A stretch of 64,000 bases of DNA, taken from sequence record NC_094493.1, one strand, 5' to 3'. Made by a program: the position numbers and the translations under genes. This document shows positions 7,235-18,808 of the stretch, piece after piece. Within the stretch, counting starts at the first letter, position 1, and each line of letters opens with the position of its first letter. Under the pieces are notes generated by a model. It was not told where the DNA came from, did not search any database, and worked only from the letters and a program-made list of their open reading frames with translations. This stretch comes from a phage.

Positions 7235-8218
7235 TTAGATTATCTGAATCAGGGTGTTTTTCATCTCTTCTCTGGTACGGATGTTGTTACGATCACGAAC
7301 AACAGATCCACAACCTTCGCAGCGGTATGTTTTAAATGCACTCAGCTGAGTATACGCCAAAGCTTCTTCCTCGTGAAGGTGTTCTCCACCACAGCGTGGG
7401 CAACGAACCTTTGGCTCCTCGTCCTGGTAGTACAATGACATGTTTGGGTGCTGCTTAGCAAACGGGCGAGCCAGCAAATACAAGCCTTCCAGAGACAGGA
7501 TATCACCAACATTATACTCCCGCATCTGTTTAAATGCCTCAAGATCGCCATGGACACACTTGATCCACATTTCAAATGTGTGGTCAATCAGTTTCTGTCG
7601 GGCCAGTTGGAAGTATTTGCATGCATACTCTAAAGTGTTTGCATTCAAACGGAATGCCTTCTTGATCATTTTAAGGGTGTCAACCTCTTTGTAGGGGCTT
7701 GTTGGAGGCAACCCGTGAAATGCAAATCGTTGGTTGGCCCACCCGCAGTCAAAACCTGAATTGTGGGCTACTGCGACATCGCATTTATCCAGATAATACC
7801 ACAAATCCTGAATCAATTCGAGATCATTGTGAATATCCTCATCCCACATTTTGTAATCTGGAAGAGCGCAGTCAACCACACTAGGGCTGTCTAACCACTT
7901 ACCTGCGAAAGTTAGCATATAGGGCATAACTTCAATACCACAGGTTTGAATGTTGGTCTTATAGTGCCCAAAGAACCAGCCGTTTGTTGGGGATGTCTCT
8001 GTATCATACACCCAAACTTTAGCACCTTTGTGCTCTTCAAGGAAGCGCTCCGTTGCTTCTCCTACAATCTCCGACATATTCTCTTGTGCACGTTTAAGCT
8101 GTAGTCGGATCCAGCTCTCACGTGACTCACGGCCTAAAAATTCACGAGCAATTTGTCTATTAGTGTATCCTTGTTGCTTTAGTGTTAAAATTTGCTCAAG
8201 AGTTAACTTTGTCATCAT
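7235..8218 (-). CDS. DEDD-family 3'-5' exonuclease with N-terminal HTH-like region
   Basis: VYDTETS (Exo I) and AHNSGFD (Exo II) motifs. Confidence 0.55.
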   Translation of the reverse strand: MMTKLTLEQILTLKQQGYTNRQIAREFLGRESRESWIRLQLKRAQENMSEIVGEATERFLEEHKGAKVWVYDTETSPTNGWFFGHYKTNIQTCGIEVMPYMLTFAGKWLDSPSVVDCALPDYKMWDEDIHNDLELIQDLWYYLDKCDVAVAHNSGFDCGWANQRFAFHGLPPTSPYKEVDTLKMIKKAFRLNANTLEYACKYFQLARQKLIDHTFEMWIKCVHGDLEAFKQMREYNVGDILSLEGLYLLARPFAKQHPNMSLYYQDEEPKVRCPRCGGEHLHEEEALAYTQLSAFKTYRCEGCGSVVRDRNNIRTREEMKNTLIQII

Positions 8219-8230
8219 CGTTAAGATTCC

Positions 8231-8452
8231 TTAGTAAAACTGAAGAATGTCTTTTAAAGCGAAGTCACGATATTCGCCCTTGTCTACATCGAAGGCACGC
8301 ATCAACCACTGCTCTTCTTTATGATACTCTGTAGAGCCAAACCATAAATTAGGCTCAGTAACGCAGCGATCTGCAACAACACCTTTCCAGTTACGGTATT
8401 TCATCCTGATCAGGACTGAGTCGCAAGGATTGAATACCTTTTTCATCCCCAT
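8231..8452 (-). CDS. Hypothetical protein (73 aa)
   Basis: ORF only. Confidence 0.3.
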   Translation of the reverse strand: MGMKKVFNPCDSVLIRMKYRNWKGVVADRCVTEPNLWFGSTEYHKEEQWLMRAFDVDKGEYRDFALKDILQFY

Positions 8453-8996
8453 AGAAATCTCTCTCCTCAGTTTTCTTTATAAACTCCTGCATGTAGAGCT
8501 CAATAGCCTCATGCTTGGTGCACTCTGGATTAATGACAAGATTGAGATCTGATTCTGCTCGTGCAATAATCGTAGCTTTAGAGCATCTCCTCAAGAACTT
8601 TGTCATATCATCTCTGTAGTTTTTGTGGAGCGGGAAGTCGCTGTAGTCTTTCTCCAAATAGTCAGCCATCCGGCGCAACGCCTCTGATAAACTGCAATCT
8701 GTATACTCGTTACAGTATTTCATCCAGTATTTAAGCACATACCCCTCAAAGGTATTAGTGCATTGAGACAAAACACCCCTGCAACGACCAGTCAGATGAT
8801 CATGATCTAAACAAGGCTTACGAAGTGGCTCGCACAAGATCGGATCAAGACCATCCTGCTCCTCTGACAATTCTTTTCGAAAGTTGGCTATGTCCTTAGA
8901 ATCTTTTAACCACCCGTTATGAACTGGGGCTTTGACAGCTTTCTTTCTTATTTTACGCTTTGCGATAATCCCTCCAGATGAGCCCTGCCTATCCAA
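8391..8996 (-). CDS. Endonuclease VII-like junction-resolving nuclease
   Basis: CLDHDHLTGRCRGVLSQCTNTFEG closely parallels the T4 gp49 HLDHDH...RGLLCNLCNAAEG zinc/active-site block. Confidence 0.65.
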   Translation of the reverse strand: MDRQGSSGGIIAKRKIRKKAVKAPVHNGWLKDSKDIANFRKELSEEQDGLDPILCEPLRKPCLDHDHLTGRCRGVLSQCTNTFEGYVLKYWMKYCNEYTDCSLSEALRRMADYLEKDYSDFPLHKNYRDDMTKFLRRCSKATIIARAESDLNLVINPECTKHEAIELYMQEFIKKTEERDFYGDEKGIQSLRLSPDQDEIP

Positions 8997-9577: not shown

Positions 9578-9909
9578 GCTTCCTCATCCTCCTCTCCTTC
9601 ATCAGGAGCATAAGCCTTATCTTTGAACAAGACGAGAGAGCAAAGCTTAACATCTGTTTCCACACTGGTGAACATGCATAACCGCTCGCCCTCAATCAAC
9701 TCACAATCCTCTTTTAAAACAGCAGACCATACACGGTCATCTGCGTAATCATCTGTGTACAGGATGTATGAAATAGTGTCATCTTCATACAACCGCCACA
9801 TACCTGTGGCAACAATAAATGTATTTTTTGTTTTAATGGTCCCTGTTGTATGATCATCCTCAAAAACAGCTTCCATAATTGCATTATCTACAGAATTTTT
9901 AGTCATCAA
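9574..9909 (-). CDS. Hypothetical acidic protein (111 aa)
   Basis: ORF only. Confidence 0.3.
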   Translation of the reverse strand: MMTKNSVDNAIMEAVFEDDHTTGTIKTKNTFIVATGMWRLYEDDTISYILYTDDYADDRVWSAVLKEDCELIEGERLCMFTSVETDVKLCSLVLFKDKAYAPDEGEEDEEA

Positions 9910-11045
9910 ATTGCTCCAACATTTCTAAGAACGTTAACAAGTTTTGTTCGATCATTGAATGTTCGCTTCATATACAAACAGTCAAAAATTATACTCATCC
10001 ACTGACCTACGGAAATTCTACGATCAATACCATTGAAGTCAGTATACTTAACAACACCTTTCGGGAACCACTTCTTGTACTGATCAATAATAGCCGCCCA
10101 CATCTCCTTTGGAGTGCTGCACTGAGACAGTAGGTAGAATGCTGAGGCATCCCCGAACTTACCCTTACCGATAAGTCCTTGATACGGCTTGATGTTGTCA
10201 GCAGAGTCACCACACAGCATTTGGTATCCGAAGAACAGCATTCCGTAACCACCAACCTCTCCATTAGGCTTCATGAAGATGTTACCCATACCGTTATCGA
10301 TCAGCATAGGGGTTTCCCTTACAAAATCTCCCTTATCATTTCGCATGGGATCGAACACAAGCCCCGGTAGTGTTCTTTGGTCCTTATCAATAGAGATAAT
10401 AAACTTGTTGAACTTACCTGTTTTTTGGTAGTGGTTCCAACCTTCAAATTGCTGGATAGCTAACCAGTCGTCAGCCTCGATACCGTTGATCACTTGAGCA
10501 TTATACTGCTTTTGGAGATACTGTCTTGCATCTCCAAGCAGCAGTGGTCGAAGAGTATTGTTACGGTTGGCTTTATATCTTTCCGGCATTGGGAGATCTA
10601 GTCTGAAGTTACCTGTGCCTCCCAGCACCCCAACGCACCGATCTTCCGGAATACCGAGATAATTAAGGACTGCATTAGCTTTACACTTAATTGTGTGCAA
10701 GCAGTTCTCTACAGGATCTGGGGTTTGGATATCCAAGACATCGAAATCTTCTCGTGTCCACGGAATAAACTCCTTGCCAGCCTTTTTACATGCAGCTTCA
10801 CGGTTGGTATTCTCAGCTTTTAACCAACCACCAACGGTGTTCTTCTGCCGCCCCCAGAACTCTGTTCGTGTTTTAAACATCTTCTTACGTCCGGAGGCTT
10901 TGTGTGTTACCTCAATTGTCCTTTTTTCACAACTTGCTGCAGCTTGATATGCAACCTGATCGAAGTCATAATAAACTATAGCGTCAGGTTCAAGAAGATC
11001 AGCCAGACAATCTATGGACTCAATAAGCGGATATTCTCTACTCAA
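9906..11045 (-). CDS. 5'-3' exonuclease / flap endonuclease (T4 RNase H-like)
   Basis: YKANR and INGIEADDWLA match the T4 RNase H YKKNR / YEADD blocks. Confidence 0.55.
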   Translation of the reverse strand: MSREYPLIESIDCLADLLEPDAIVYYDFDQVAYQAAASCEKRTIEVTHKASGRKKMFKTRTEFWGRQKNTVGGWLKAENTNREAACKKAGKEFIPWTREDFDVLDIQTPDPVENCLHTIKCKANAVLNYLGIPEDRCVGVLGGTGNFRLDLPMPERYKANRNNTLRPLLLGDARQYLQKQYNAQVINGIEADDWLAIQQFEGWNHYQKTGKFNKFIISIDKDQRTLPGLVFDPMRNDKGDFVRETPMLIDNGMGNIFMKPNGEVGGYGMLFFGYQMLCGDSADNIKPYQGLIGKGKFGDASAFYLLSQCSTPKEMWAAIIDQYKKWFPKGVVKYTDFNGIDRRISVGQWMSIIFDCLYMKRTFNDRTKLVNVLRNVGAI

Positions 11046-11346
11046 AGACCCTCCTGTTAGTTATTCTGCAAGATGGTTGGATGCTGTAATGGAATGCATC
11101 ATCACTCTCTGCAATAAGTGACTCAACATCCCAATACTTTTCAAAAAGGAACGGATTAGACCCCCAGTGGTGGGTTATTTTCATCAAGGAGTCTGGTATC
11201 ATATAACCACAGATCTTAATTACATCGCCAGGTTGAATTGTGTTTTCATGAAGGTTGCTTGCCTTCTTCAGAATCATACCTTTATGATTCTCGTTTGCAT
11301 ACAACTGGACAATATCTTTATCTTCAATAATAAAAATTTTAAGCAT
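11038..11346 (-). CDS. Hypothetical protein (102 aa)
   Basis: ORF only. Confidence 0.3.
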   Translation of the reverse strand: MLKIFIIEDKDIVQLYANENHKGMILKKASNLHENTIQPGDVIKICGYMIPDSLMKITHHWGSNPFLFEKYWDVESLIAESDDAFHYSIQPSCRITNRRVFE

Positions 11347-11405
11347 ATCTAGTTCTCCTAGTTTATAGATATCTGACCGATAATATCAGATTAATAACAC
11401 TTTTG

Positions 11406-11699
11406 TCAAGACTTTTTAGTCTTTCTTGGAGAGCTTTTTGTTGATCTTTTCCTTTTGTGGTAGATTCCAAGTGCAGCGTTTTCTTGGGCGCACGTTTTAA
11501 CAGTTCTCAGACAAGAACTTTCAGCTTTAGGCAGGTTTAACTCCCACCAACCAAGCCAGTAAAGTTCTGATTCAGACAACTGCTCAGATTCAGCCTTCCG
11601 ATACAAGGCTTGCATACCTCTGATGATATCGTCCAGAGGTGTATCGAATACAAAAGCTGTCTTATCGAATTTCTCTTTTACAGGTTTCTTAGCCATCAA
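11406..11699 (-). CDS. Hypothetical protein with basic C-terminus (97 aa)
   Basis: ORF only. Confidence 0.3.
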   Translation of the reverse strand: MMAKKPVKEKFDKTAFVFDTPLDDIIRGMQALYRKAESEQLSESELYWLGWWELNLPKAESSCLRTVKTCAQENAALGIYHKRKRSTKSSPRKTKKS

Positions 11700-12153
11700 G
11701 GTAACCCTCTATCCACGAAAAGTCAGTCTTCCATTCTGGAACTTTACTAAGCTCACGCCACTCTGCAAAGCAGTCTCGGTAATAGGCCTCTGCCATACCC
11801 TTGGTGATCTTATTCACCTTAGCTAACTGACTAACTGCCTGAGCATACTTTCCACGGATATTTGCTAACCCAGGATGCACCGATGTGTGACAATCTGGGC
11901 ACAACGCTATCAGTCCGACAAGCCGGATCACTCCCTCTTCGAAAGTGTAAAGTTCATGACACTCCACTGGGTGTTTGCTGCCTTTACCGCCGCACACCTC
12001 ACAGGTGTAGTTGGCTTCTCTATAGCACTTCTTGCGGATCTTATCCCACTCACTCTTCTTCACAGCGTTTCGGAGGTTATTATACCAAGCTGTTTCTGGG
12101 ATCAGTTGCACAATAAGCCTGCGTTCAGACTTCATTAAACGTCCGTCTTCCAC
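11689..12153 (-). CDS. Zinc-binding HNH-like protein
   Basis: CEVCGG...ECHELY...LCPDCHTSVH Cys/His pattern. Confidence 0.35.
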   Translation of the reverse strand: MEDGRLMKSERRLIVQLIPETAWYNNLRNAVKKSEWDKIRKKCYREANYTCEVCGGKGSKHPVECHELYTFEEGVIRLVGLIALCPDCHTSVHPGLANIRGKYAQAVSQLAKVNKITKGMAEAYYRDCFAEWRELSKVPEWKTDFSWIEGYLDG

Positions 12154-12162
12154 GTATTCTCC

Positions 12163-12369
12163 TCACTCAAAGAAATGGGTGCGAGGACAAGATCCAGCCT
12201 CGCCTTGTTTCACAAGCTCGTAGAGCTCACCTTGACTTGTCTCATAAAGGCAAATACGTTTACCATTGTCCCGATATACATCGACAAGATACGCTGTTTC
12301 ACCTGCAAACACGACACCACAGGCCAGACATGCTGCCATGAACAAAATTGCCAACAGAAAGTCTTTCAT
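12163..12369 (-). CDS. Small secreted or membrane-anchored protein (68 aa)
   Basis: N-terminal hydrophobic signal-like segment LLAILFMAACLACGVVFA; sits just downstream of the endolysin. Confidence 0.35.
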   Translation of the reverse strand: MKDFLLAILFMAACLACGVVFAGETAYLVDVYRDNGKRICLYETSQGELYELVKQGEAGSCPRTHFFE

Positions 12370-12432
12370 GGTTAAACCCTCCTAAACATTTTATGAGGTA
12401 ACAATACCACGTCCGTGTGGTTATGTCAATGA

Positions 12433-12903
12433 TCAATCAAGGACAACACCGCCTGCCTTTTTAAACACCTCGATCAACTTCTCAATCTTCTGTTCATGCT
12501 GACCATATCCAGCACCAGGCAACGAAGCCCAGCGGGAACGGCATTTATGGATAGCCTCGTGGATACGCCCTTCGTCAATGTCGGCGAGAGCCTTGCACTC
12601 ACGGATCAGTTGCAACGCAATCTTGTCCTGACTGGCAGGGCCAAAATCTGGCAATCCTAACTGTTCCATGTAGTGTTTAGCAAACTTCTCCAAAACCTGG
12701 TAACGCCCAGCAGCGGAGGAGGTAAGTTTAGCATTTAGCTTAACGTAAACACCGGGATGCTTGCTGTAATCGCTGAACAGCTTGCCTCCGACTATGACAT
12801 CGTATCCCCGATCCTTGGTAGGTTGTCTACCATTATCTGTGCCTTCCGAATATGCGATCATATCCAAGAAAGCCTTTCGTTGAACATTTTTATCAAGTTT
12901 CAT
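12433..12903 (-). CDS. Endolysin, lambda R-type lytic transglycosylase
   Basis: Near end-to-end resemblance to lambda R as recalled: QRKAFLDMIAYSEGTDNGRQ, GYDVIVGG, AGRYQ, WASLPGAGYGQ. Confidence 0.85.
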   Translation of the reverse strand: MKLDKNVQRKAFLDMIAYSEGTDNGRQPTKDRGYDVIVGGKLFSDYSKHPGVYVKLNAKLTSSAAGRYQVLEKFAKHYMEQLGLPDFGPASQDKIALQLIRECKALADIDEGRIHEAIHKCRSRWASLPGAGYGQHEQKIEKLIEVFKKAGGVVLD

Positions 12904-13045
12904 TTTTCATACTCTCCAGTTCACTCATAACGAGCCCCGATCAGCACCACTGTGTGGTGTGGCTAGGTTGCACAGTTCATACATCAGGGCATATGTAGGT
13001 GCAAATTGAAAACACTTATTCAATTGGCTACTAAACATACCTAAA

Positions 13046-14329
13046 TTATTCCAGCACCTCCCAAGTGTCTGGGTTAACATTTCGGACGCAGATACCGACA
13101 GGGAATTGGTAGTTGTTGTCTTCTGTCCTTGCTTGATATTTGAAGGTGACAAACTTGCCGATCATTTCCTGCATTCTGTCATAGCTACGCTCCTCGTGCG
13201 TACCTTTCATCTTCATTTTAACAACAATACCTTCCTTGTCAACACAGATAAGAACACCTTCATCATTCTTATCTTTCTCAACGTCAATAACTTTCACCTC
13301 TGCGTCGTTGAACTTTTTCCATTTCAATGCTTCAGATGTTCTCTGACCGTACTCATATTTACCACAGAAGTTACGCATAATGGTACCTTCATATCCTTCG
13401 GACATGAATATACCAACAGATTCTTCGCAATGATCAACTGTGTACGCAAGCTCTGCGTCAACAACCTTGATATGGTCAAGCATCAGAGTGGTAACGGTAT
13501 CCTCTGCATCCATAAGATCCTTGCAGCGTCCAGACTCTGTTTCGGGATCCCACCACACCTTGTCGCTAGGAATATCAAAAATGTGATACTCCAGATCGTA
13601 GCTACAGTACCCACCGTAACGCAAATCATCACGAACAGGCTCAACATCGACAGGAATATCTACCTTGTTGAAGTTTTTATATGTTGATAAGCCGGACTTA
13701 ATTGCGGCATGACGGCGTTTTTTATCTGCCTCATAGTCTTTATCGATCTCGGCCTGAATCTCTTCCTGTGTGCGCCACCGTTTAGCAAGAGACACTATTT
13801 TCTGCAAAGGAAGACCATGAATGTATAGTTCCCCATCAAGTTGTTTAATCCCAGTGGTAGAATGGAAAGAACGAAGTTGCTCTAAAAGCTTTCCTTGAAT
13901 AGGGTAGGACTTATTACCACGGGAAATAAATTTAGGCTCACCATTTTGGAAAACAACAAGCAGACGAAGGCCATCTAACTTACGCAAGATCCAGCAAGGT
14001 AGTTTAAGTGCCTTGCCACGCTTCAGGTAGTCATGCACCAGCATGGGTAAAAGATCAACACCCTGCTCGCAATCTTCCATGTTTTCAACATACCCCAGAC
14101 GGACTTGTTTTTCCCACTTGCTGATAGCCTCAAGCTCGGCCTGTTGCTCAGCTGTAGTCTCATTGGCACGACCTACGTTCTTAGGTGTGCATACCGTCTC
14201 TTTGTACTGCAATTTACCGTCAAGCTTGCCAAACTCTACGATAACCTTTTCGCCATCAGTGAATACTTTCCACTGTTGGTAGCTGCCATCTTTGTTCAGT
14301 GCGTACAGTGTTGTTTTGATTTGATGCAT
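13046..14329 (-). CDS. ATP-dependent DNA ligase
   Basis: Motif I LRKLDGLR (KxDG) and EG-containing motif IV-like segment. Confidence 0.7.
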   Translation of the reverse strand: MHQIKTTLYALNKDGSYQQWKVFTDGEKVIVEFGKLDGKLQYKETVCTPKNVGRANETTAEQQAELEAISKWEKQVRLGYVENMEDCEQGVDLLPMLVHDYLKRGKALKLPCWILRKLDGLRLLVVFQNGEPKFISRGNKSYPIQGKLLEQLRSFHSTTGIKQLDGELYIHGLPLQKIVSLAKRWRTQEEIQAEIDKDYEADKKRRHAAIKSGLSTYKNFNKVDIPVDVEPVRDDLRYGGYCSYDLEYHIFDIPSDKVWWDPETESGRCKDLMDAEDTVTTLMLDHIKVVDAELAYTVDHCEESVGIFMSEGYEGTIMRNFCGKYEYGQRTSEALKWKKFNDAEVKVIDVEKDKNDEGVLICVDKEGIVVKMKMKGTHEERSYDRMQEMIGKFVTFKYQARTEDNNYQFPVGICVRNVNPDTWEVLE

Positions 14330-14598
14330 TACTCGGCCTCTTCCTTAAAAATTTTAAACATCTCTTCTTTACTCATTACCAACCAGTCTCCCATAAAGTC
14401 AACTAGCCAATCTCCCTGGTACAAGACAAGGTTACCAAAAGGCTCGACAAGCTCACACATGCGACGAAGATCTCTGGTCCGAACAGGTGACGATGTAAAC
14501 ACACCTGTATCAATCCACCGTTGCAGATCAGATACTGATGAAGAGCTTCCGTCAAACTGGTGGGCTTCTACAGGTTTAGCAAGATTAAATAACGGCAT
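14329..14598 (-). CDS. Hypothetical protein (89 aa)
   Basis: ORF only. Confidence 0.3.
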   Translation of the reverse strand: MPLFNLAKPVEAHQFDGSSSSVSDLQRWIDTGVFTSSPVRTRDLRRMCELVEPFGNLVLYQGDWLVDFMGDWLVMSKEEMFKIFKEEAE

Positions 14599-14893
14599 TG
14601 CAGTCCTCCTTCTGTAGTAGGTCTTTTATAGGATAAACAAGTAAGTGTGGATCGGAATAACGTATAGTCTTATTCTGCCACACTATGAACTTTATTACAA
14701 CCAAATTTACAATATCTTTATCACCATGTAGCCCAACACACACATTTGTCCATATTTTGTGGTTGAAGATCTTGCTATCGATGTAGATTTTAGTGTCAAA
14801 CTTATCTTCCATTCTACCTATAAGTTTGATCAGCTCCTTCATCTGGTCGCCAAACACAGCATCTTTTTCAAGATCTCTGGAATGCTTGTACAT
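14585..14893 (-). CDS. Hypothetical protein (102 aa)
   Basis: ORF only. Confidence 0.3.
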   Translation of the reverse strand: MYKHSRDLEKDAVFGDQMKELIKLIGRMEDKFDTKIYIDSKIFNHKIWTNVCVGLHGDKDIVNLVVIKFIVWQNKTIRYSDPHLLVYPIKDLLQKEDCNAVI

Positions 14894-14955
14894 AACTAAC
14901 TACCTCGCTGCATACTTTCCATAATAAGTAAAGCCGGGATTACCCGGCTATGTTG

Positions 14956-15669
14956 TCAAATATACTCTGTTACATCCTTGAAGCTCGAAGGCTTCATGAT
15001 CTTACCTTTACTGTCAAGGAATATGATAACTTTATTACCGTTGTAGAATTCTTCCTTAGCAACAAAACCTTCATATCGACCATCAAAGCGTCGCTCAAGA
15101 TCTTTAATCTCCAACTCGATGAGTTGTTCAGCAGGCATATCTGCACTGGCACCGTGTGAATACCGTAGATGGTTGACCCGTGCAAACTTGCTGTCATTCG
15201 ATTTGAGAACCTTACGCATCATCCCGCACACATCGCCGCGAAGCTGGAACAGCAAAGCTGTTGACAACTCTGCTAAGCGGTAAGCAGACGCTCTTTGCTT
15301 AGAGGTGTTTTTCGCAGCGATCAGTGTATCATAGAACTCACCAATCTTGAACTTAATACCTCGTGGATTATCAAACAGGTTTGACCACTTTTCGTGATTG
15401 TCATTAACAAGATAAGCGGCATAACTTGTGACAACATGAAGATCGCAGGCCTCTTTTAGCAAGTGATCTCCACCATCACCTTTCTCCAGCTCTTCCAAAA
15501 CTTCATTGAACTCTTCCTCAATGAAGCTAAGCTGTAATTCGAATGGTGTGTATGATTTTTTCACCTTAGCTGCCACACGGTTCCAGTTTTCCACCCAGTT
15601 GGCAGACCAAAGGTAGTTTTCAGGCTGAGACAGTTTTTCCAGGTTGTCGATCAGTTTAGTATTCAGCAT
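14956..15669 (-). CDS. Hypothetical protein, possibly MazG-like all-alpha NTP pyrophosphatase
   Basis: EEEFNEVLEELEKGD...EACDL resembles the MazG EExxE/D motif; weak. Confidence 0.3.
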   Translation of the reverse strand: MLNTKLIDNLEKLSQPENYLWSANWVENWNRVAAKVKKSYTPFELQLSFIEEEFNEVLEELEKGDGGDHLLKEACDLHVVTSYAAYLVNDNHEKWSNLFDNPRGIKFKIGEFYDTLIAAKNTSKQRASAYRLAELSTALLFQLRGDVCGMMRKVLKSNDSKFARVNHLRYSHGASADMPAEQLIELEIKDLERRFDGRYEGFVAKEEFYNGNKVIIFLDSKGKIMKPSSFKDVTEYI

Positions 15670-15682
15670 TAAAGGTCTCCTT

Positions 15683-16444
15683 TTAAAGTTCCATAAAGTT
15701 TTCTACAGTTTCAATAAATACTTTATCAGAGAAAGCGTCAACAGCACCGTTAAACCATACAGGGATCCCGCGATCCTCATATTGATAAAGGTCGCTACGT
15801 GAAATGCCACTTCCATCTGCACTCTGCGAATCATACTTGTTTACAATCAGCAGTTTTGTGCCTTTACAAGTAGCAGGAAACAATTCCCAGTTAAAATTAA
15901 TAACTGTGTTAGAACAACCTACCAGGATAACCATATCATTGCTTGTGAGAGATGTCAACAGGTCATACATGTCTGTATACTTAGGAGCAACCTCACCGAA
16001 GAACACTACATTGGGCTTAACCCAGGTATACTTACCTGTATCTACCTCCGTGTATCCGATATTTTTAATTACATCATTACCTTCAGCATCTTCGTAGGTG
16101 ATTTCAGGCAAATACCCGTGGACATGTAAAATATCTTCATGTTTTACACCAGCACGCTCCAGCAAATCATCTACATTGGTGGTAAGGTTGATCACACGAC
16201 CAGACCAGCGGGAATACCACTCAGCGATCCGAAGATGTGCAAGGTTAGGATCAACACTGCCCAGAGCTACACGACGTGCATTGTAAAAGTCATGCACCTT
16301 ATAGTAGTTCTTGGCAAAGGTGTGGATGTTGCACACCTCATCTATGCTGAAATTCTCCCACATTGCAGTACTACCAGATCGGAAAGTGGGAATACCAGAT
16401 TCAGCGCTCAAACCAGCACCGGAGATAATAATCAGTCGTCGCAT
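15683..16444 (-). CDS. Sir2-family (sirtuin) NAD-dependent enzyme lacking the zinc ribbon
   Basis: GAGLSAESGIPTFR, TTNVDDL, catalytic-His-like HVHG and PNVVFFGE motifs; no CxxC...CxxC between the HG and VVFFGE motifs. Confidence 0.75.
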   Translation of the reverse strand: MRRLIIISGAGLSAESGIPTFRSGSTAMWENFSIDEVCNIHTFAKNYYKVHDFYNARRVALGSVDPNLAHLRIAEWYSRWSGRVINLTTNVDDLLERAGVKHEDILHVHGYLPEITYEDAEGNDVIKNIGYTEVDTGKYTWVKPNVVFFGEVAPKYTDMYDLLTSLTSNDMVILVGCSNTVINFNWELFPATCKGTKLLIVNKYDSQSADGSGISRSDLYQYEDRGIPVWFNGAVDAFSDKVFIETVENFMEL

Positions 16445-16452
16445 AAGTGCCC

Positions 16453-16803
16453 TCAGTAGATGTTTTGTTTAATCTCTATTCCAAACTTTTTAAACGAGTC
16501 AGCTGCAAGCATGAATTTACGAGCCGCTGATGGATTAGAAGTATGTACGAAAATCTTCACGTTGTCAACCACGGGAGGCTTACCGAATACAAATTTTTCC
16601 TCCAACATGGATAGGCAATCGTATCCTTCGAATACTTCTCCTAGGTCGTTGTCCATATGCCACTCAGAAACGCGTCTGTAGAGCTTTCCCTTATCGTTAA
16701 TAAAATCCATAAACTCGGAGGAATTCTTCAGCCAAACAGCGTCTGGGAGCCCGTAATTTGACGGATCTCTTAAGTCATCTAGCCACACAATCAACTTCTT
16801 CAT
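16453..16803 (-). CDS. Hypothetical protein (116 aa), translationally coupled to the RNA ligase gene
   Basis: Start overlaps the ligase stop (ATGA); 9-nt gap to the Sir2 gene. Confidence 0.35.
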   Translation of the reverse strand: MKKLIVWLDDLRDPSNYGLPDAVWLKNSSEFMDFINDKGKLYRRVSEWHMDNDLGEVFEGYDCLSMLEEKFVFGKPPVVDNVKIFVHTSNPSAARKFMLAADSFKKFGIEIKQNIY

Positions 16804-17735
16804 TGCATATAGTTCTCGTTGTGGAAATAGTAATCAAGTATCTCACGGCGTTCCTGCTCCAGGAGGCAGTTCCACACATCCTCTGTGTAATTGCTACGAA
16901 TGAAGTTTACCATGCCGTAAAACTCTTCGTCAACACGTTTAAAGATATCATCATCCCAAATCTTCCAAGCTTTACCCCTCATTACGGCCTTCCGTGCCAG
17001 ATAGTATGGAGACTTGATCTTCAGCTGCAGATCATAAGGGTAGTAAGGCTTACGAATCATATACCCTTCACCTCTTGTTTCTGCAGCTAATTCTTTTGCA
17101 TAGCTGAACGGAATTTCACGCACAGTGTGAGGACGTTTTGCACCAAGGTATTTGGCAATCCCATCTAAAGCTGCTTCTGGTAGCATTATTCCAGAATCAT
17201 TATATCTGCAACCTATCAAATATGCGCCATGATCTTCCTGAACAATATGCGGATCTGAAGGGTGACAAATTTCAAACATGAATGTCATGTTTTCATTGCC
17301 CATAACCTTCTTGATAAGATCTAAATTACCACATTGCTCTTGGATGGTTTCCTTTGCAAGGTTACAATATGGAGAATCAAGAGACCCGGTTGTTGAGAAC
17401 AATAGTTCACCTTTATGAGATGATACCACACCGAGGAATCCGTTCTTTTTCTCTACCGCAGTAACAAGTTTACTGTCCGGTAGGTTGGTGGAGTTTTCTC
17501 CTAAGTTGAATACTTTTGTGAAAGGCCATGCCACAACATTCCCCTCATTGCCAACAACAATACCTCGGCACTCCAGTAAACGCGGAGACAAATGCCACAG
17601 ATTGTTGTAGAATACTTTTCTGGCATATTTATAGATCTTTAATCCAAGATCTGGATAATACCGACTGGTTACAAGACCTTTGTCTACTAGGTCATCTGCA
17701 TTAAAATACTTCATCATACGTTCCTCATTTGTCAT
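16800..17735 (-). CDS. ATP-dependent polynucleotide (probably RNA) ligase
   Basis: Motif I-like VEKKNGF (KxNG), motif IV-like EGYMIRK and KIK motif V-like segment. Confidence 0.5.
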   Translation of the reverse strand: MTNEERMMKYFNADDLVDKGLVTSRYYPDLGLKIYKYARKVFYNNLWHLSPRLLECRGIVVGNEGNVVAWPFTKVFNLGENSTNLPDSKLVTAVEKKNGFLGVVSSHKGELLFSTTGSLDSPYCNLAKETIQEQCGNLDLIKKVMGNENMTFMFEICHPSDPHIVQEDHGAYLIGCRYNDSGIMLPEAALDGIAKYLGAKRPHTVREIPFSYAKELAAETRGEGYMIRKPYYPYDLQLKIKSPYYLARKAVMRGKAWKIWDDDIFKRVDEEFYGMVNFIRSNYTEDVWNCLLEQERREILDYYFHNENYMQ

Positions 17736-17778
17736 TTTGTCAGTCTATCCTGCCACACAAATAACCTAGTGTCAACAC

Positions 17779-17807
17779 TTGAAATTAACAAAACAGTTAG
17801 GTATACT
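17779..17807 (+). promoter_or_regulatory. Sigma70-type promoter (TTGAAA, 17 bp, TATACT)
   Basis: Read directly from sequence upstream of the kinase gene. Confidence 0.4.
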
Positions 17808-17835
17808 ATCATTAAAATTAAAACGGAGGGTTGCT

Positions 17836-18246
17836 ATGTCTAAAATGCTATATATCGTGCGTGGTCTGCCAGGGTCTGGCAAATCAACACTGGCAAATGC
17901 GCTATCTTTAGAAGGTCTGTATCCACATTTTGAGAACGACATGTTCTGGTATGACGATGACGGCAATTACAACTGGGATGCAAGTAAAGTAACACTCGCA
18001 GCAAAATGGTGCAAAGATAACGTAGAAGATATGATGCGTATGGGATACGACCGTATCGTGGTAAGTAATACGTTTACAAAAGAAAAACATGTGCAGGAAT
18101 ATGTTGACATGGCAATCAGTCACGGGTATAGTTATACCGTGATCGTGGTTGAAAACCGCCACGGTAATAAAAGCATTCATGATGTTCCAGACAAGGTTGT
18201 GGATCGTATGGAACGCCAGCTTAAAAACTGCATTAAACTTAAATGA
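17836..18246 (+). CDS. Polynucleotide kinase-like P-loop kinase
   Basis: Start moved to ATG after GGAGGG RBS; Walker A GLPGSGKST as in T4 Pnk kinase domain. Confidence 0.55.
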   Translation: MSKMLYIVRGLPGSGKSTLANALSLEGLYPHFENDMFWYDDDGNYNWDASKVTLAAKWCKDNVEDMMRMGYDRIVVSNTFTKEKHVQEYVDMAISHGYSYTVIVVENRHGNKSIHDVPDKVVDRMERQLKNCIKLK

Positions 18247-18253
18247 GGAATGT

Positions 18254-18808
18254 ATGAAATACTTTGTAACAAGCGACACACACTTTCTCCACCAGCGGGT
18301 CATGGAGTTTGATTCATGTCAAAAACACAGATCTCAGTATGATCACAATCTTGACAGTATGAATGCGGGAATCATCACCAAGTGGAACTCTGTTGTGTCA
18401 CCTGCAGACACTGTGTTTCACTTGGGAGATATTGCGTGCACTAATGATAAGAATATCAACAAATTGCTCCCAGATGTTCTAAATATGTTGAACGGACATA
18501 TTATTCTTGTTCGTGGTAACCATGACACAAGGACGACTGTCAGAATTATGAAAGAGTTCGGTCATGAGGTTGTAGATTATTACGAGCTTCGCCACAACAA
18601 GAATTTGATCTGTATGAGCCATTACCAGTTTGCAAAGTGGAACAGAAAGCCTCACGGATCAGTCCAACTGTTCGGTCATGCTCACGGAACCACACAGCAG
18701 TTGTTTGGCAGGCAGTTTGATGTCGGTTGGGATGTGTGGGGGAGACTCTTACCATTAGAAGAGGCATACCGTATTGCAATGAGTCTTGCTATTGACAGCG
18801 GGGAGTAA
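18254..18808 (+). CDS. Calcineurin-like metallophosphoesterase
   Basis: Start moved to ATG (MKYFVTSDTHF); SDTHF, GDI and GNHD motifs. Confidence 0.6.
   Translation: MKYFVTSDTHFLHQRVMEFDSCQKHRSQYDHNLDSMNAGIITKWNSVVSPADTVFHLGDIACTNDKNINKLLPDVLNMLNGHIILVRGNHDTRTTVRIMKEFGHEVVDYYELRHNKNLICMSHYQFAKWNRKPHGSVQLFGHAHGTTQQLFGRQFDVGWDVWGRLLPLEEAYRIAMSLAIDSGE

Follow-up and report, generated by a model that had tools for sequence, protein, structure and literature searches.

tRNA repair by Pnkp and Rnl1 of phage T4 counters the anticodon nuclease PrrC, and T4 pnk is dispensable on ordinary hosts. T4 Rnl1 acts on 2'-OH/3'-OH ends, and no 2'-phosphate remains after it has sealed them. tRNA splicing by Trl1 and Tpt1 proceeds through a cyclic phosphodiesterase, a kinase, a ligase, NAD+-dependent removal of the 2'-phosphate, and breakdown of the ADP-ribose by-product.

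Sirtuin-centred RNA-repair neighbourhoods of phages have been described by Iyer, Burroughs, Anantharaman & Aravind (2022, Viruses 14:1977; PMC9503650). Their type 2, "Escherichia phage V5 / Proteus phage Mydo", comprises a sirtuin, a T4-like RNA ligase, cREC, a nucleotide kinase, a pyrophosphatase of the MazG superfamily, and a calcineurin-like phosphoesterase. A KptA/Tpt1-like, NAD+-dependent role for the sirtuin has already been proposed there as a computational prediction, and the linkage between cREC and the ligase has been remarked on (PMC7824862).

The locus analyzed here lies in a window of 64,000 nucleotides (NC_094493.1) from a Vequintavirus (rV5-like) infecting E. coli. It shares the phage group and the gene set of type 2, shows no essential difference, and is a member of it. 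The first-pass annotation took the gene combination to be undescribed, but section 3.7.3 of PMC9503650 presents the neighbourhood with phage V5 as prototype; both the combination and the NAD-dependent sirtuin step are therefore already known as a 2022 prediction.

Kinase, phosphoesterase, and RNA ligase

The cluster of kinase, phosphatase, and RNA ligase is real and intact, with the sirtuin and two helper enzymes adjoining. All six genes are located where the first-pass annotation placed them, and catalytic residues are kept in all six proteins. The minus strand carries a tight unit of, in order, the Rnl1-type RNA ligase, a 116-aa ORF, Sir2, and a MazG-superfamily ORF, and the polynucleotide-kinase-like and metallophosphoesterase genes diverge from it on the plus strand. 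The ligase stop overlaps the start of the 116-aa ORF in an ATGA (16800–16803), as reported before. The stop of this ORF and the Sir2 ATG are separated by 8 nt rather than the 9 nt claimed, and Sir2 and the last ORF by 13 nt with an AAGGAG Shine-Dalgarno site. Just 3' of the MazG-like stop is a terminator-like hairpin (14932–14949, minus strand; AGCCGGG-TAAT-CCCGGCT, 7 bp, G+C-rich, followed by a T-rich tail), a pattern match from a consensus scan only and the probable 3' end of the four-gene unit. The overlap, the two short gaps, and the terminal hairpin make the packing operon-like. Ligase unit and kinase unit are separated by 100 bp of intergenic DNA (17736–17835) with promoter-like hexamers, consensus matches only: TTGAAA-17-TATACT on the plus strand (17779–17807) and TTGACA on the minus strand.

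The 311-aa ligase ORF (16800–17735, minus strand) belongs to the T4 Rnl1 family (PF09511, 9e-15; phrog_562, 4e-66); related records annotate its start 18–21 nt further downstream. T4 Rnl1 (2C5U, 2e-9) is the only match of its profile in the PDB, where no Trl1-type match is found. K96-x-N98-G99 (motif I, aligned to the lysine of T4 K-E-D-G), F154-E155, E223-G224, and K239-x-K241 are invariant. The possibility, raised earlier, that the ligase is a DNA-ligase paralogue is ruled out, because a separate ATP-dependent DNA ligase is encoded at 13046–14329.

The kinase is a stand-alone polynucleotide 5'-hydroxyl-kinase-like P-loop protein of 136 aa (17836–18246, plus strand; AAA_33, 1e-10; phrog_505 polynucleotide kinase, 4.7e-10), with invariant G-x-G-K-S-T and D35. 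It also matches the kinase part of phrog_8238, a kinase-ligase fusion family. The closest solved matches of its profile are all RNA-repair 5'-OH kinases, with bacterial Pnkp proteins at the top (Pnkp1 4XRP, 3.5e-6; CthPnkp kinase domain, 1e-5), then T4 Pnk (1LTQ, 1.8e-5) and a Mucorales RNA kinase of tRNA splicing (9D8A, 1.5e-4).

Starting 7 nt past the kinase stop, the third gene encodes a calcineurin-like metallophosphoesterase (MPE) of 184 aa (18254–18808, plus strand; PF00149 (Metallophos), 4e-6; PF12850, 1.7e-6; phrog_547, 5e-51), in which D8-x-H10, G58-D59, G88-N89-H90-D91, H123, and G141-H142-x-H144 are invariant. Its nearest solved relatives are Aquifex aq_1665 (1XM7, 2e-14) and YfcE (0.019), and it is not of the lambda-phosphatase/CthPnkp type.

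The locus and T4 both have a Pnk-type P-loop 5'-kinase and a ligase of the Rnl1 family in which the nucleotidyl-transferase motifs are complete. However, kinase and phosphatase are encoded separately, with a binuclear metallophosphoesterase in place of an HAD/DxDxT domain, the ligase is shorter (311 versus 374 aa) and scores 38 bits, far under the T4 RnlA equivalog cut-off of 242 bits, and the sirtuin, cREC, and MazG-like protein are additions. With bacterial Pnkp (Clostridium thermocellum Pnkp; Capnocytophaga Pnkp1-Rnl-Hen1), it shares the logic of kinase, metallophosphoesterase, and ligase, but here these are three polypeptides with an aq_1665/YfcE-like phosphoesterase and an Rnl1-type ligase, and no Hen1 methyltransferase. 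The healing-and-sealing function predicted for the triad in the first-pass annotation is well supported both by homology, the ligase being T4 Rnl1-like and the kinase akin to RNA-repair kinases, and by conserved linkage, the triad co-occurring in unrelated phages.

Gene order and dispensability in other phages

Inherited gene order does not by itself account for the clustering, as the same genes are linked in at least four different arrangements across other genera of phages. The divergent layout is that of V5-type loci. In 12 Seunavirus-type loci the order is MPE-Rnl-cREC-Kin-Sir2-(DNA ligase)-MazG-like, all on one strand, and further layouts occur in L046/L080 and in L047/48/56. The DNA ligase and two small ORFs of no assigned function also accompany the cluster. 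The constant core is phosphoesterase, ligase, and kinase, which lacks the sirtuin in Pakpunavirus and Vibrio phages and which, in Pakpunavirus JG004 and Vibrio phage 166E36-1, is accompanied by none of the three remaining genes. The phosphoesterase, called "occasional" in PMC9503650, is the most constant partner of the ligase in our survey.

Of all the components, the sirtuin has the loosest linkage, and its attachment is lineage-specific. In about 50 of the 63 loci of its clade, ligase, kinase, and cREC are all absent within 10 kb, and the phages that carry this ligase family (Pseudomonas, Streptomyces, Vibrio) are mostly missing among the sirtuin matches. In phAPEC8/phi92-like phages, it lies ~30–32 kb from the cREC-MPE-Rnl-Kin cluster, among unrelated DUF genes; in two phAPEC8-like contigs, Sir2, cREC, MPE, and the MazG-like gene are retained although neither Rnl nor Kin occurs within 10 kb of the cluster. 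T5-like phages carry the sirtuin with an HAD_SAK_2 phosphatase instead of ligase, kinase, or cREC; in T5 itself this gene (PF18143, 4e-20) belongs to the same gene string, lying a few hundred bases downstream. The jumbo phages SP27 and PHA46 combine Sir2, a Nudt16-like Nudix protein, and cREC, with sirtuin identity of only ~38–43%, and PHA46 also has an Acb1-like 2H protein. A KptA gene in the place of the sirtuin is found in none of the fetched loci.

Phage Bas54 is 94.7% identical and has the orthologous locus. In transposon data on three E. coli hosts, five of its cluster genes are non-essential and cREC is "Intermediate"; no requirement for the locus appears across the three hosts, and no conditional essentiality on the two clinical strains. 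Like T4 pnk, the Bas54 kinase is dispensable on ordinary hosts. In the same study T4 rnlA is not freely disruptable, whereas the Bas54 ligase is non-essential.

Sirtuin, cREC, and MazG-like protein

The sirtuin (253 aa; 15683–16444, minus strand) is of class III (CobB/SIRT5-like) type (PF02146, 7e-28; top PDB match E. coli CobB 1S5P, 3e-21), and defence-type SIR2 models do not match it. GAGxSxxSG..FR, F53-Y54-x-x-R57-R58, T89-N90-V91-D92, H109-G110, and K143-P144 with V146, F148, F149, and E151 are invariant among 27 phage homologues. The NAD+ pocket, the catalytic His, and the anion-binding Tyr-x-x-Arg pair are thus conserved as in E. coli CobB and human SIRT5. In contrast to these, the zinc module is lost, with no Cys pairs between H109 and K143 in any of the 27, and the clade is phage-restricted with other gene neighbours.

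The 116-aa ORF (16453–16803, minus strand), which the first-pass annotation did not recognize, encodes a cyclic-phosphate-processing receiver domain (cREC, PF20274).

The MazG-like protein (237 aa; 14956–15669, minus strand) is all-alpha, with a small conserved C-terminal beta domain, and resembles NTP pyrophosphohydrolases of the MazG/HisE/dimeric-dUTPase superfamily. The earlier "MazG-like" label has moderate support: phrog_671 "nucleotide pyrophosphohydrolase" (5e-22), PF01503 PRA-PH precomputed on three homologues, and a conserved acidic motif EExxE...ExxD (invariant E52, E53, E56, and D76) favour it. However, the protein itself has no Pfam or NCBIfam match, HisE (1YVW) is a weak PDB match (E 0.059), and the AF2 model, whose top fold matches are dimeric dUTPases (prob 0.92–0.96), is of low confidence (pLDDT 59).

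Possible role of the sirtuin

In Vequintavirus, we tentatively propose, a phage cassette for RNA repair (tRNA "healing and sealing") takes the form of this locus, with the sirtuin performing a Tpt1/KptA-like step; we consider this reading as a whole plausible but somewhat short of probable, its healing and sealing steps being the well-supported part. In these steps, cleavage by a metal-independent ribonuclease, such as an anticodon nuclease of the host, would leave 2',3'-cyclic-phosphate and 5'-OH ends. The kinase would phosphorylate the 5' end, opening of the cyclic phosphate and removal of the 3'-terminal phosphate would fall to the metallophosphoesterase, perhaps together with cREC, and the ligase would seal the break. 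The sirtuin scaffold may then carry out the two-step chemistry of Tpt1/KptA, removing a 2'-phosphate with NAD+, and cREC, as a cyclic phosphodiesterase, and the MazG-like pyrophosphatase may degrade the ADP-ribose by-product.

The pathway imitated would be that of fungal and plant Trl1 and Tpt1, with Cpd1/Poa1 clean-up of ADP-ribose cyclic phosphate. In contrast to that pathway, the locus has no Tpt1/KptA homologue, its proposed 2'-phosphotransferase is a Rossmann-fold sirtuin, and its proposed cyclic phosphodiesterase is a receiver-domain protein instead of a 2H enzyme. The ligase has no detectable Trl1 affinity and resembles T4 Rnl1; therefore, a junction 2'-phosphate need not arise. The intact active sites, the operon-like packing, the linkage kept through rearrangements, the fusion family phrog_8238, the triad of unrelated phages, the independent proximity of the sirtuin clade to phosphate-end or ADPR-processing enzymes (HAD_SAK_2 in T5; Nudix and cREC in SP27 and PHA46, with 2H in PHA46), and a sirtuin in which the catalytic His and the anion-binding Tyr/Arg pair are invariant but the zinc module is gone speak for this reading, and the lineage-specific link between sirtuin and ligase, the lack of KptA substitution, and the lack of conditional requirement in Bas54 speak against it.

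Alternatively, the sirtuin could be an ordinary CobB/SIRT5-type lysine deacylase (deacetylase or desuccinylase) that retunes host or phage proteins and meets its neighbours only through shared early accessory operons. Among solved and curated relatives, CobB and SIRT5 come closest, the residues of deacylase catalysis and the class III acyl-carboxylate pocket are all invariant, and the gene occurs apart from the repair genes in T5-like and phAPEC8-like phages. We nevertheless regard this as unlikely, though a serious contender: the zinc module, which helps to form the peptide cleft, lacks cysteines across the whole clade, the bit scores are less than half of every CobB equivalog cut-off, and near neighbours in three independent phage lineages process phosphate or ADP-ribose.

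Quite unlikely is a third reading, in which sirtuin, cREC, and a pyrophosphatase (MazG-like in this locus, a Nudix protein in jumbo phages) act in NAD+/ADP-ribose counter-defence on small molecules or ADP-ribosylated targets instead of broken RNA, with the triad a separate neighbour. The jumbo phages fit it, having Sir2-Nudix-cREC with no Rnl1 or kinase and, a few kb upstream in PHA46, genes for Nampt and a cytidylyltransferase. So do the two phAPEC8-like contigs, an NAD synthase adjoining one cREC, a Nampt adjoining one Sir2, and Prs-like and NAPRTase-like genes that abut the JG004 triad and lie a few kb upstream in PVP-SE1. Recent work showing that phages reuse a tRNA-splicing-type enzyme (a Poa1p-like macro domain) to rebuild NAD+ is also in its favour. 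On the other hand, a sirtuin uses up NAD+, which is counter-intuitive against NAD+-depleting defences, and we know of no sirtuin that acts on free ADPR-derived signals. In addition, V5-type phages couple cREC translationally to the RNA ligase, and in phAPEC8-like phages cREC stays with the repair triad, not with the sirtuin. The NAD+ papers examined mention neither sirtuin nor cREC.

That the six genes are mere neighbours is very unlikely: the broad synteny of Vequintavirinae genomes, the accompanying DNA ligase and small ORFs, and the individually dispensable genes of Bas54 (cREC "Intermediate") would fit, but the genes remain linked despite several rearrangements, unrelated phages have the triad too, kinase-ligase fusions exist, and Sir2-cREC adjacency reappears in divergent jumbo phages.

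The dispensability in Bas54 neither supports nor refutes a counter-defence role; five non-essential genes and an "Intermediate" cREC are as expected of a conditional module. As an RNA-repair cassette, the locus is an accessory module, and an effect would be expected only where the host attacks RNA.

Layout and affiliation of the locus

The 4-kb region is shared at 96–98% identity by upwards of 100 E. coli myoviruses of the rV5-like type, with JES2013, V5, Murica, FFH2 and BASEL phages among them (phage V5 is 96% identical to the window across the locus), indicating that the window is a segment of a Vequintavirus genome. From the sequence and its ORFs, all six genes lie inside 3.9 kb. On the minus strand, the TGA stop codon of the RNA ligase gene (16800–17735) is located inside the ATG of a 116-aa ORF (the cREC gene, 16453–16803), giving an ATGA overlap at 16800–16803. 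The stop codon of the 116-aa ORF is followed after 8 nt by the ATG of the Sir2 (sirtuin) gene (15683–16444), which is separated by 13 nt, with an AAGGAG site, from a 237-aa MazG-like ORF (14956–15669). A G+C-rich hairpin of 7 bp with a T-rich tail, found by sequence scan, lies 3' of the 237-aa ORF (14932–14949). An intergenic region of 100 bp separates this unit from the plus-strand unit, in which the kinase gene (17836–18246), preceded by GGAGGG, is followed 7 nt past its stop codon by the phosphoesterase gene (18254–18808). The first-pass annotation had the six genes, their order and the overlap right, and only its 9-nt gap ahead of Sir2 needs correction to 8 nt. Strand skew and base composition flip near 18 kb. 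A scan for sigma-70 promoters finds 16 matches, compared with 11.9 ± 3.0 expected in shuffles; there is no enrichment, and the promoter calls are therefore tentative.

In RefSeq, the JES2013 genes are labelled nucleotide pyrophosphohydrolase, Sir2, hypothetical protein, 'RNA ligase and tail attachment protein', ATPase and phosphoesterase. Two small minus-strand ORFs of 89 aa (phrog_14585) and 102 aa (phrog_7684), neither with a Pfam match, are located at 14329–14893 between the MazG-like gene and the DNA ligase gene. Both stay with the cluster in all the Vequintavirinae arrangements that we examined, and in PVP-SE1 a homologue of the 102-aa ORF adjoins the phosphoesterase. Also 96–98% identical to the rV5-like locus are 18–23 unannotated MG0656xx records ('Campylobacter phage D1, A147, C12 ...') labelled as Campylobacter jejuni phages; given this identity, the labels look like host misattribution or contaminating coliphages.

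By its gene content, the window belongs to the V5/Mydo-type neighbourhood, which comprises a sirtuin with a T4-like RNA ligase, cREC, a nucleotide kinase, a pyrophosphatase of the MazG superfamily and a calcineurin-like phosphoesterase (PMC9503650). That definition specifies a medium-sized proteobacterial phage and treats the phosphoesterase as optional (PMC9503650). The locus is thus a member of a neighbourhood already described in silico in 2022, and the view of the first-pass annotation that the combination was undescribed does not hold. Its idea of an NAD+-dependent sirtuin step in RNA repair coincides with a published hypothesis, in which the sirtuin was proposed to act like KptA/Tpt1 in removing 2'-phosphates, and the neighbouring enzymes to open a cyclic phosphate or process the resulting ADP-ribose cyclic phosphate (PMC9503650). 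Apart from transposon fitness values for phage Bas54, our literature search found no experiments on the cluster, its cREC or the phage sirtuin.

The ligase, kinase and phosphoesterase

The ligase matches PF09511 (9e-15; 55.5 bits against a cut-off of 28.3) and phrog_562, the T4 gp63 family (4e-66). It scores 38 bits against the NCBIfam equivalog TIGR02308 (T4 RnlA), far under the cut-off of 242, indicating that it is a divergent member of the family rather than a T4 RnlA equivalog. Motifs K96-x-N98-G99, F154-E155, E223-G224 and K239-x-K241 are invariant in eight homologues and align to motifs I, III, IV and V of T4 Rnl1. Among solved structures, a profile of the eight homologues matches T4 Rnl1 only (2e-9), with no Trl1-type match. 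A T4 Rnl1-family ligase would be expected to seal 5'-PO4/3'-OH RNA ends in an ATP-dependent manner, preferring broken anticodon loops of tRNA. Since a separate gene encodes an ATP-dependent DNA ligase (13046–14329) and the RNA-ligase motifs are intact, a DNA-ligase paralogue is ruled out, and the identity first assigned to the protein is upheld. The widespread label 'RNA ligase and tail (fibre) attachment protein' has been carried over from T4 gp63.

The kinase matches AAA_33 (1e-10) and phrog_505, 'polynucleotide kinase'. Its P-loop (G10-x-x-G13-x-G15-K16-S17-T18) and D35, the expected Asp general base following strand 2, which aligns with the Asp of the Pnkp1 'NRDD' segment, are invariant among homologues. 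The top PDB matches of its profile are Capnocytophaga Pnkp1, the kinase domain of C. thermocellum Pnkp, T4 Pnk and a Mucorales tRNA-splicing kinase, and a family of kinase–ligase fusions, phrog_8238, matches both the kinase and the ligase of the window. Whereas in T4 Pnkp and bacterial Pnkp the kinase is fused to a 3'-phosphatase domain, the window kinase is a stand-alone domain of 136 aa, and the phosphoesterase is a separate gene.

All metal-binding motifs of the phosphoesterase (DxH, GD, GNH(D/E), H, GH and GHxH) are invariant in eight homologues. The protein matches PF00149 (27.8 against 21.5) and PF12850 (28.5 against 27), and its nearest solved relatives in a profile search are Aquifex aq_1665 (2e-14) and YfcE (0.019). 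The same search of the PDB matched neither bacterial Pnkp nor lambda phosphatase. Bacterial Pnkp carries a lambda-phosphatase-like branch of the fold, whereas the window phosphoesterase falls outside that branch. Of the polynucleotide-kinase-like gene and the calcineurin-type metallophosphatase of the first-pass annotation, the kinase stands, and the phosphatase lies outside the Pnkp branch of its superfamily. Judged by homology, the joint task of the three enzymes would be the healing and sealing of RNA that metal-independent nucleases have cut, which is the best-supported part of our interpretation.

In phage T4, pnk and rnlA matter only on particular hosts, the prr+ strains. Phage Bas54 (MaxBurger, MZ501093) is colinear with the whole locus at 94.7% identity, and its transposon tolerance has been mapped in the HIDEN-SEQ preprint (10.1101/2025.11.20.689424). 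Five genes are classed as non-essential, with transposons in 35 of 40 TA sites of the MazG-like gene (bas54_0206), 48 of 51 of the sirtuin gene (bas54_0207), 56 of 60 of the RNA ligase gene (bas54_0209), 33 of 36 of the kinase gene (bas54_0210) and 26 of 27 of the phosphoesterase gene (bas54_0211); the cREC gene (bas54_0208; 16 of 21) is classed as 'Intermediate'. On two clinical E. coli strains, none of the four genes with full resampling statistics (sirtuin, cREC, ligase and phosphoesterase) is conditionally essential (adjusted p 0.75–1.0), and resampling gives raw p values of 0.45 for the kinase gene and 0.84 for bas54_0206 (10.1101/2025.11.20.689424). T4 rnlA was not freely disruptable in that study (10.1101/2025.11.20.689424). 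By analogy with T4 pnk and rnlA, the tolerance in Bas54 fits an accessory module that would matter only on particular hosts. The hits in the ligase gene make an essential role in tail-fibre attachment unlikely for the Bas54 orthologue, in which the inherited label 'tail attachment protein' is without support.

Seven tRNA genes (21744–22556, plus strand; Arg-TCT, Tyr-GTA, Ser-TGA, an odd tRNA-like gene, Thr-TGT, Met-CAT and Pro-TGG) are clustered 3 kb downstream of the phosphoesterase gene. JES2013 has only four tRNAs (Arg, Thr, Met and Pro), in a region ~276 bp shorter than that of the window. Carrying tRNA genes and repairing tRNAs are both recognised ways for phages to counter anticodon nucleases, and the closeness of the cluster to the repair genes may therefore not be accidental. 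The odd gene (22213–22311, plus strand; 97–99 nt) is unassigned by ARAGORN, with a 4-base anticodon reported, scores 35.5 bits with the Rfam tRNA model and has a folding z-score of −3.7. The cloverleaf predicted for it combines a long variable arm with a U-rich anticodon loop (UUUUUAA) that could present UUU. With 99% identity or more across 91 Vequintavirus records, the gene is better conserved than its neighbours on either side; a single record annotates it, as 'tRNA-OTHER', and JES2013 lacks it.

The sirtuin, cREC and the MazG-like protein

The only Pfam family matched by the sirtuin is PF02146 (7e-28; 98 bits against 24), which differs in fold from KptA/Tpt1. The sirtuin is thus not homologous to the ADP-ribosyltransferase fold of these enzymes, a difference that bears on family membership alone and not on a Tpt1-like way of working. 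Among solved structures, E. coli CobB and SIRT5 are nearest to it, and the alignment with CobB includes FYNARR and HxHG. Invariant in 27 phage homologues (46–93% identity) are the motifs for NAD+, His109, which is the catalytic residue, and the class III pair Tyr54-x-x-Arg57, which we take to be Y102/R105 of SIRT5. Unlike CobB, the phage clade lacks the Cys4 zinc-binding module of the small domain: the zinc cysteines of CobB align to non-Cys residues of the window sirtuin, and none of the 27 proteins has a cysteine pair between H109 and K143. The sirtuin scores 55–123 bits against the CobB equivalogs (NCBIfam NF040867, NF001755 and others) and misses all cut-offs (221–395). The zinc module of sirtuins shapes the peptide cleft. 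The invariant His, the anion-binding Tyr/Arg pair and the lost module would be consistent with the clade having exchanged acyl-lysine for a substrate that bears a phosphate.

A defence-type SIR2 NADase (Thoeris ThsA, DSR, SIR2-HerA and others) is ruled out, as no PADLOC family matches at E ≤ 0.01. A jackhmmer search with E. coli KptA as single seed, of limited sensitivity, finds no match among the ORFs of ~95 loci (±10 kb around Sir2 or cREC homologues), so that non-orthologous displacement of Sir2 by KptA is unsupported.

The 116-aa ORF, which the first-pass annotation had left unnamed and proposed for profile searches, encodes a cREC domain (PF20274, 1.5e-14). It has the features of that family, namely a divergent receiver fold and conserved aspartates without a histidine-kinase partner, and residues D9, D10, R12, D51, D53, H87, N90 and P91 are invariant even when members from jumbo phages are included. 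Residues 86–91 (V-H-T/S-S-N-P) are invariant as well, and the H-x-S/T within them recalls the HxT/S of 2H cyclic phosphodiesterases. To our knowledge, a residue of the His87 type is not typical of ordinary receiver domains. His87 is a possible catalytic residue for the opening of a cyclic phosphate. A 354-kb jumbo phage contig of the Yersinia phage fHe-Yen9-04 type (L086) carries two tandem cREC paralogues (10004–10723), with no sirtuin, ligase or kinase found within 10 kb of the pair. Hydrolysis of cyclic phosphates is the activity predicted family-wide for cREC (PMC9503650), and both the domain and its association with RNA ligases in operons had been defined one year before that 2022 paper (PMC7824862).

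The 237-aa ORF contains the metal-binding motif EExxE...ExxD and matches phrog_671 (5e-22). Pfam and NCBIfam give no match for the protein itself, and PF01503 is found on its homologues only. Fold matches of its structural model to dimeric dUTPases (E 0.3–0.6) are weakly informative because the confidence of the model is low (pLDDT 59). The protein may plausibly belong to the MazG/HisE/dimeric-dUTPase superfamily, although the support is weak.

Neighbourhoods in other phages and the role of the sirtuin

Using profiles built from the window proteins, we surveyed 63 IMG/VR loci with the sirtuin clade, 26 with cREC and annotated phage records. The six genes remain together across rearrangements: V5-type loci are divergent, the Seunavirus-type loci (n = 12) have the order MPE-Rnl-cREC-Kin-Sir2-(DNA ligase)-MazG-like on a single strand (MPE, phosphoesterase; Rnl, RNA ligase; Kin, kinase), and cREC comes first in two loci and is not within 10 kb in three. 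The gene association thus recurs in related phages through several arrangements, a check that the first-pass annotation had suggested. In Pseudomonas phage JG004 and Vibrio phage 166E36-1, phosphoesterase, ligase and kinase are tightly packed without sirtuin, cREC or MazG-like genes. These three form the constant core of the cluster, and the sirtuin is its loosest member, ~50 of the 63 sirtuin loci having none of the other five genes; most of these loci are on contigs whose size is T5-like. In the phage collection, the sirtuin clade is present in 1010 records, the ligase family in 764 and V5-type cREC in 347, with only partial overlap.

In phAPEC8/phi92-like phages, the cluster cREC-MPE-Rnl-Kin...MazG-like is intact, and the sirtuin lies 30–32 kb off among DUF genes. 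Two phAPEC8-like IMG/VR contigs of 153 and 149 kb (L078 and L083; ~9900–15000) keep cREC, phosphoesterase, DNA ligase and the MazG-like gene, and retain the sirtuin 32 kb from the cluster, but no RNA ligase or kinase is detected within 10 kb of it, which suggests that the first four proteins have a job not needing the phage ligase. In jumbo phages SP27 and PHA46, Sir2 is found with a Nudt16-like Nudix gene and a cREC gene, and Rnl1 and kinase are absent there; in PHA46, an Acb1-like 2H protein adjoins Sir2, with Nampt and a cytidylyltransferase a few kb upstream. In T5 (NC_005859.1, locus L002), the gene string of the sirtuin (T5.102) includes, a few hundred bases downstream, T5.105 (8142–8648), a HAD_SAK_2 'Swiss-army-knife RNA-repair' phosphatase (PF18143, 4e-20) misannotated in RefSeq as 'Sir2 (NAD-dependent deacetylase)'. 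Two DUF7415 proteins, T5.106 and T5.107, come next in this string. Pfam scans of uncharacterised neighbours in phAPEC8-like, Seunavirus-type and other loci return DUFs or no match.

The likeliest role of the sirtuin is the published one, at a probability well short of even. The sirtuin would ADP-ribosylate an RNA phosphate at the expense of NAD+, and the ribose 2''-OH would then attack the ADP-ribosylated phosphate. The MazG-like protein here and the Nudix protein in jumbo phages, both putative pyrophosphatases, could dismantle the ADP-ribose cyclic phosphate together with cREC. Step by step, this route would parallel sirtuin deacylation and the Tpt1 mechanism, both of which are established chemistry. 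In the RNA-repair reading of the first-pass annotation, the core triad is supported by homology and recurring linkage, and the predicted sirtuin step is plausible.

A ligase-independent role could consist of terminal-phosphate healing or of counter-defence centred on NAD+ and ADP-ribose. In accordance with such a role, one cREC gene adjoins NAD synthase and one Sir2 gene adjoins Nampt in the surveyed loci. Annotated ribose-phosphate pyrophosphokinase and nicotinate/nicotinamide phosphoribosyltransferase genes are located directly beside the triad of JG004 (L098, 6325–9160) and a few kb upstream of the PVP-SE1 cluster (L003, 1–1476); by annotation, this pair resembles Adps/Namat, the NAD+-reconstitution pair of NARP1. 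According to recent work, a Poa1p-like enzyme also serves NAD+ reconstitution in phages. Among preprints on the NAD+ arms race (2024–2026), the one on aRES reports a phosphatase of the Macro-domain type, which is not an enzyme of this locus, and the RyR-domain preprint leaves sirtuin, cREC, Nudix and RNA ligase unmentioned. Several facts weigh against the simple model in which the sirtuin removes a junction 2'-phosphate, namely that the ligase is T4 Rnl1-like rather than Trl1-like, that the sirtuin thrives in phages without a nearby RNA ligase and that no KptA occupies its slot elsewhere (~95 loci, single-seed search, ±10 kb), and these facts leave room for a ligase-independent role.

Returning to RNA phosphate as the substrate, we tentatively consider a stronger form, possible but doubtful, in which the sirtuin would be no protein deacylase but an NAD+-dependent ADP-ribosyltransferase acting on a nucleic-acid phosphate monoester, that is, an analogue of Tpt1/KptA that uses the sirtuin fold, which would make it the first sirtuin to act on RNA. 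With cREC and the pyrophosphatase it would form a self-contained module to which the phage ligase is optional. The ligase-less versions in T5-like and jumbo phages, and the phAPEC8-like contigs without ligase or kinase near the cluster, suggest that the module is workable without a phage ligase.

The locus is well defined and experimentally tractable, with viable transposon mutants for five of six genes and cREC 'Intermediate', and the comparative survey separates core components from add-ons. If the proposal is true, sirtuins would gain a new substrate class, RNA phosphate ends, Tpt1-type chemistry would gain a second, unrelated protein fold, and the cREC receiver-domain family would get its first demonstrated activity. 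Phages of the rV5-like group are widely used in biocontrol and therapy. The proposal, if true, would explain how rV5-like, T5-like and jumbo phages survive the tRNA-cutting ribonucleases of their hosts.
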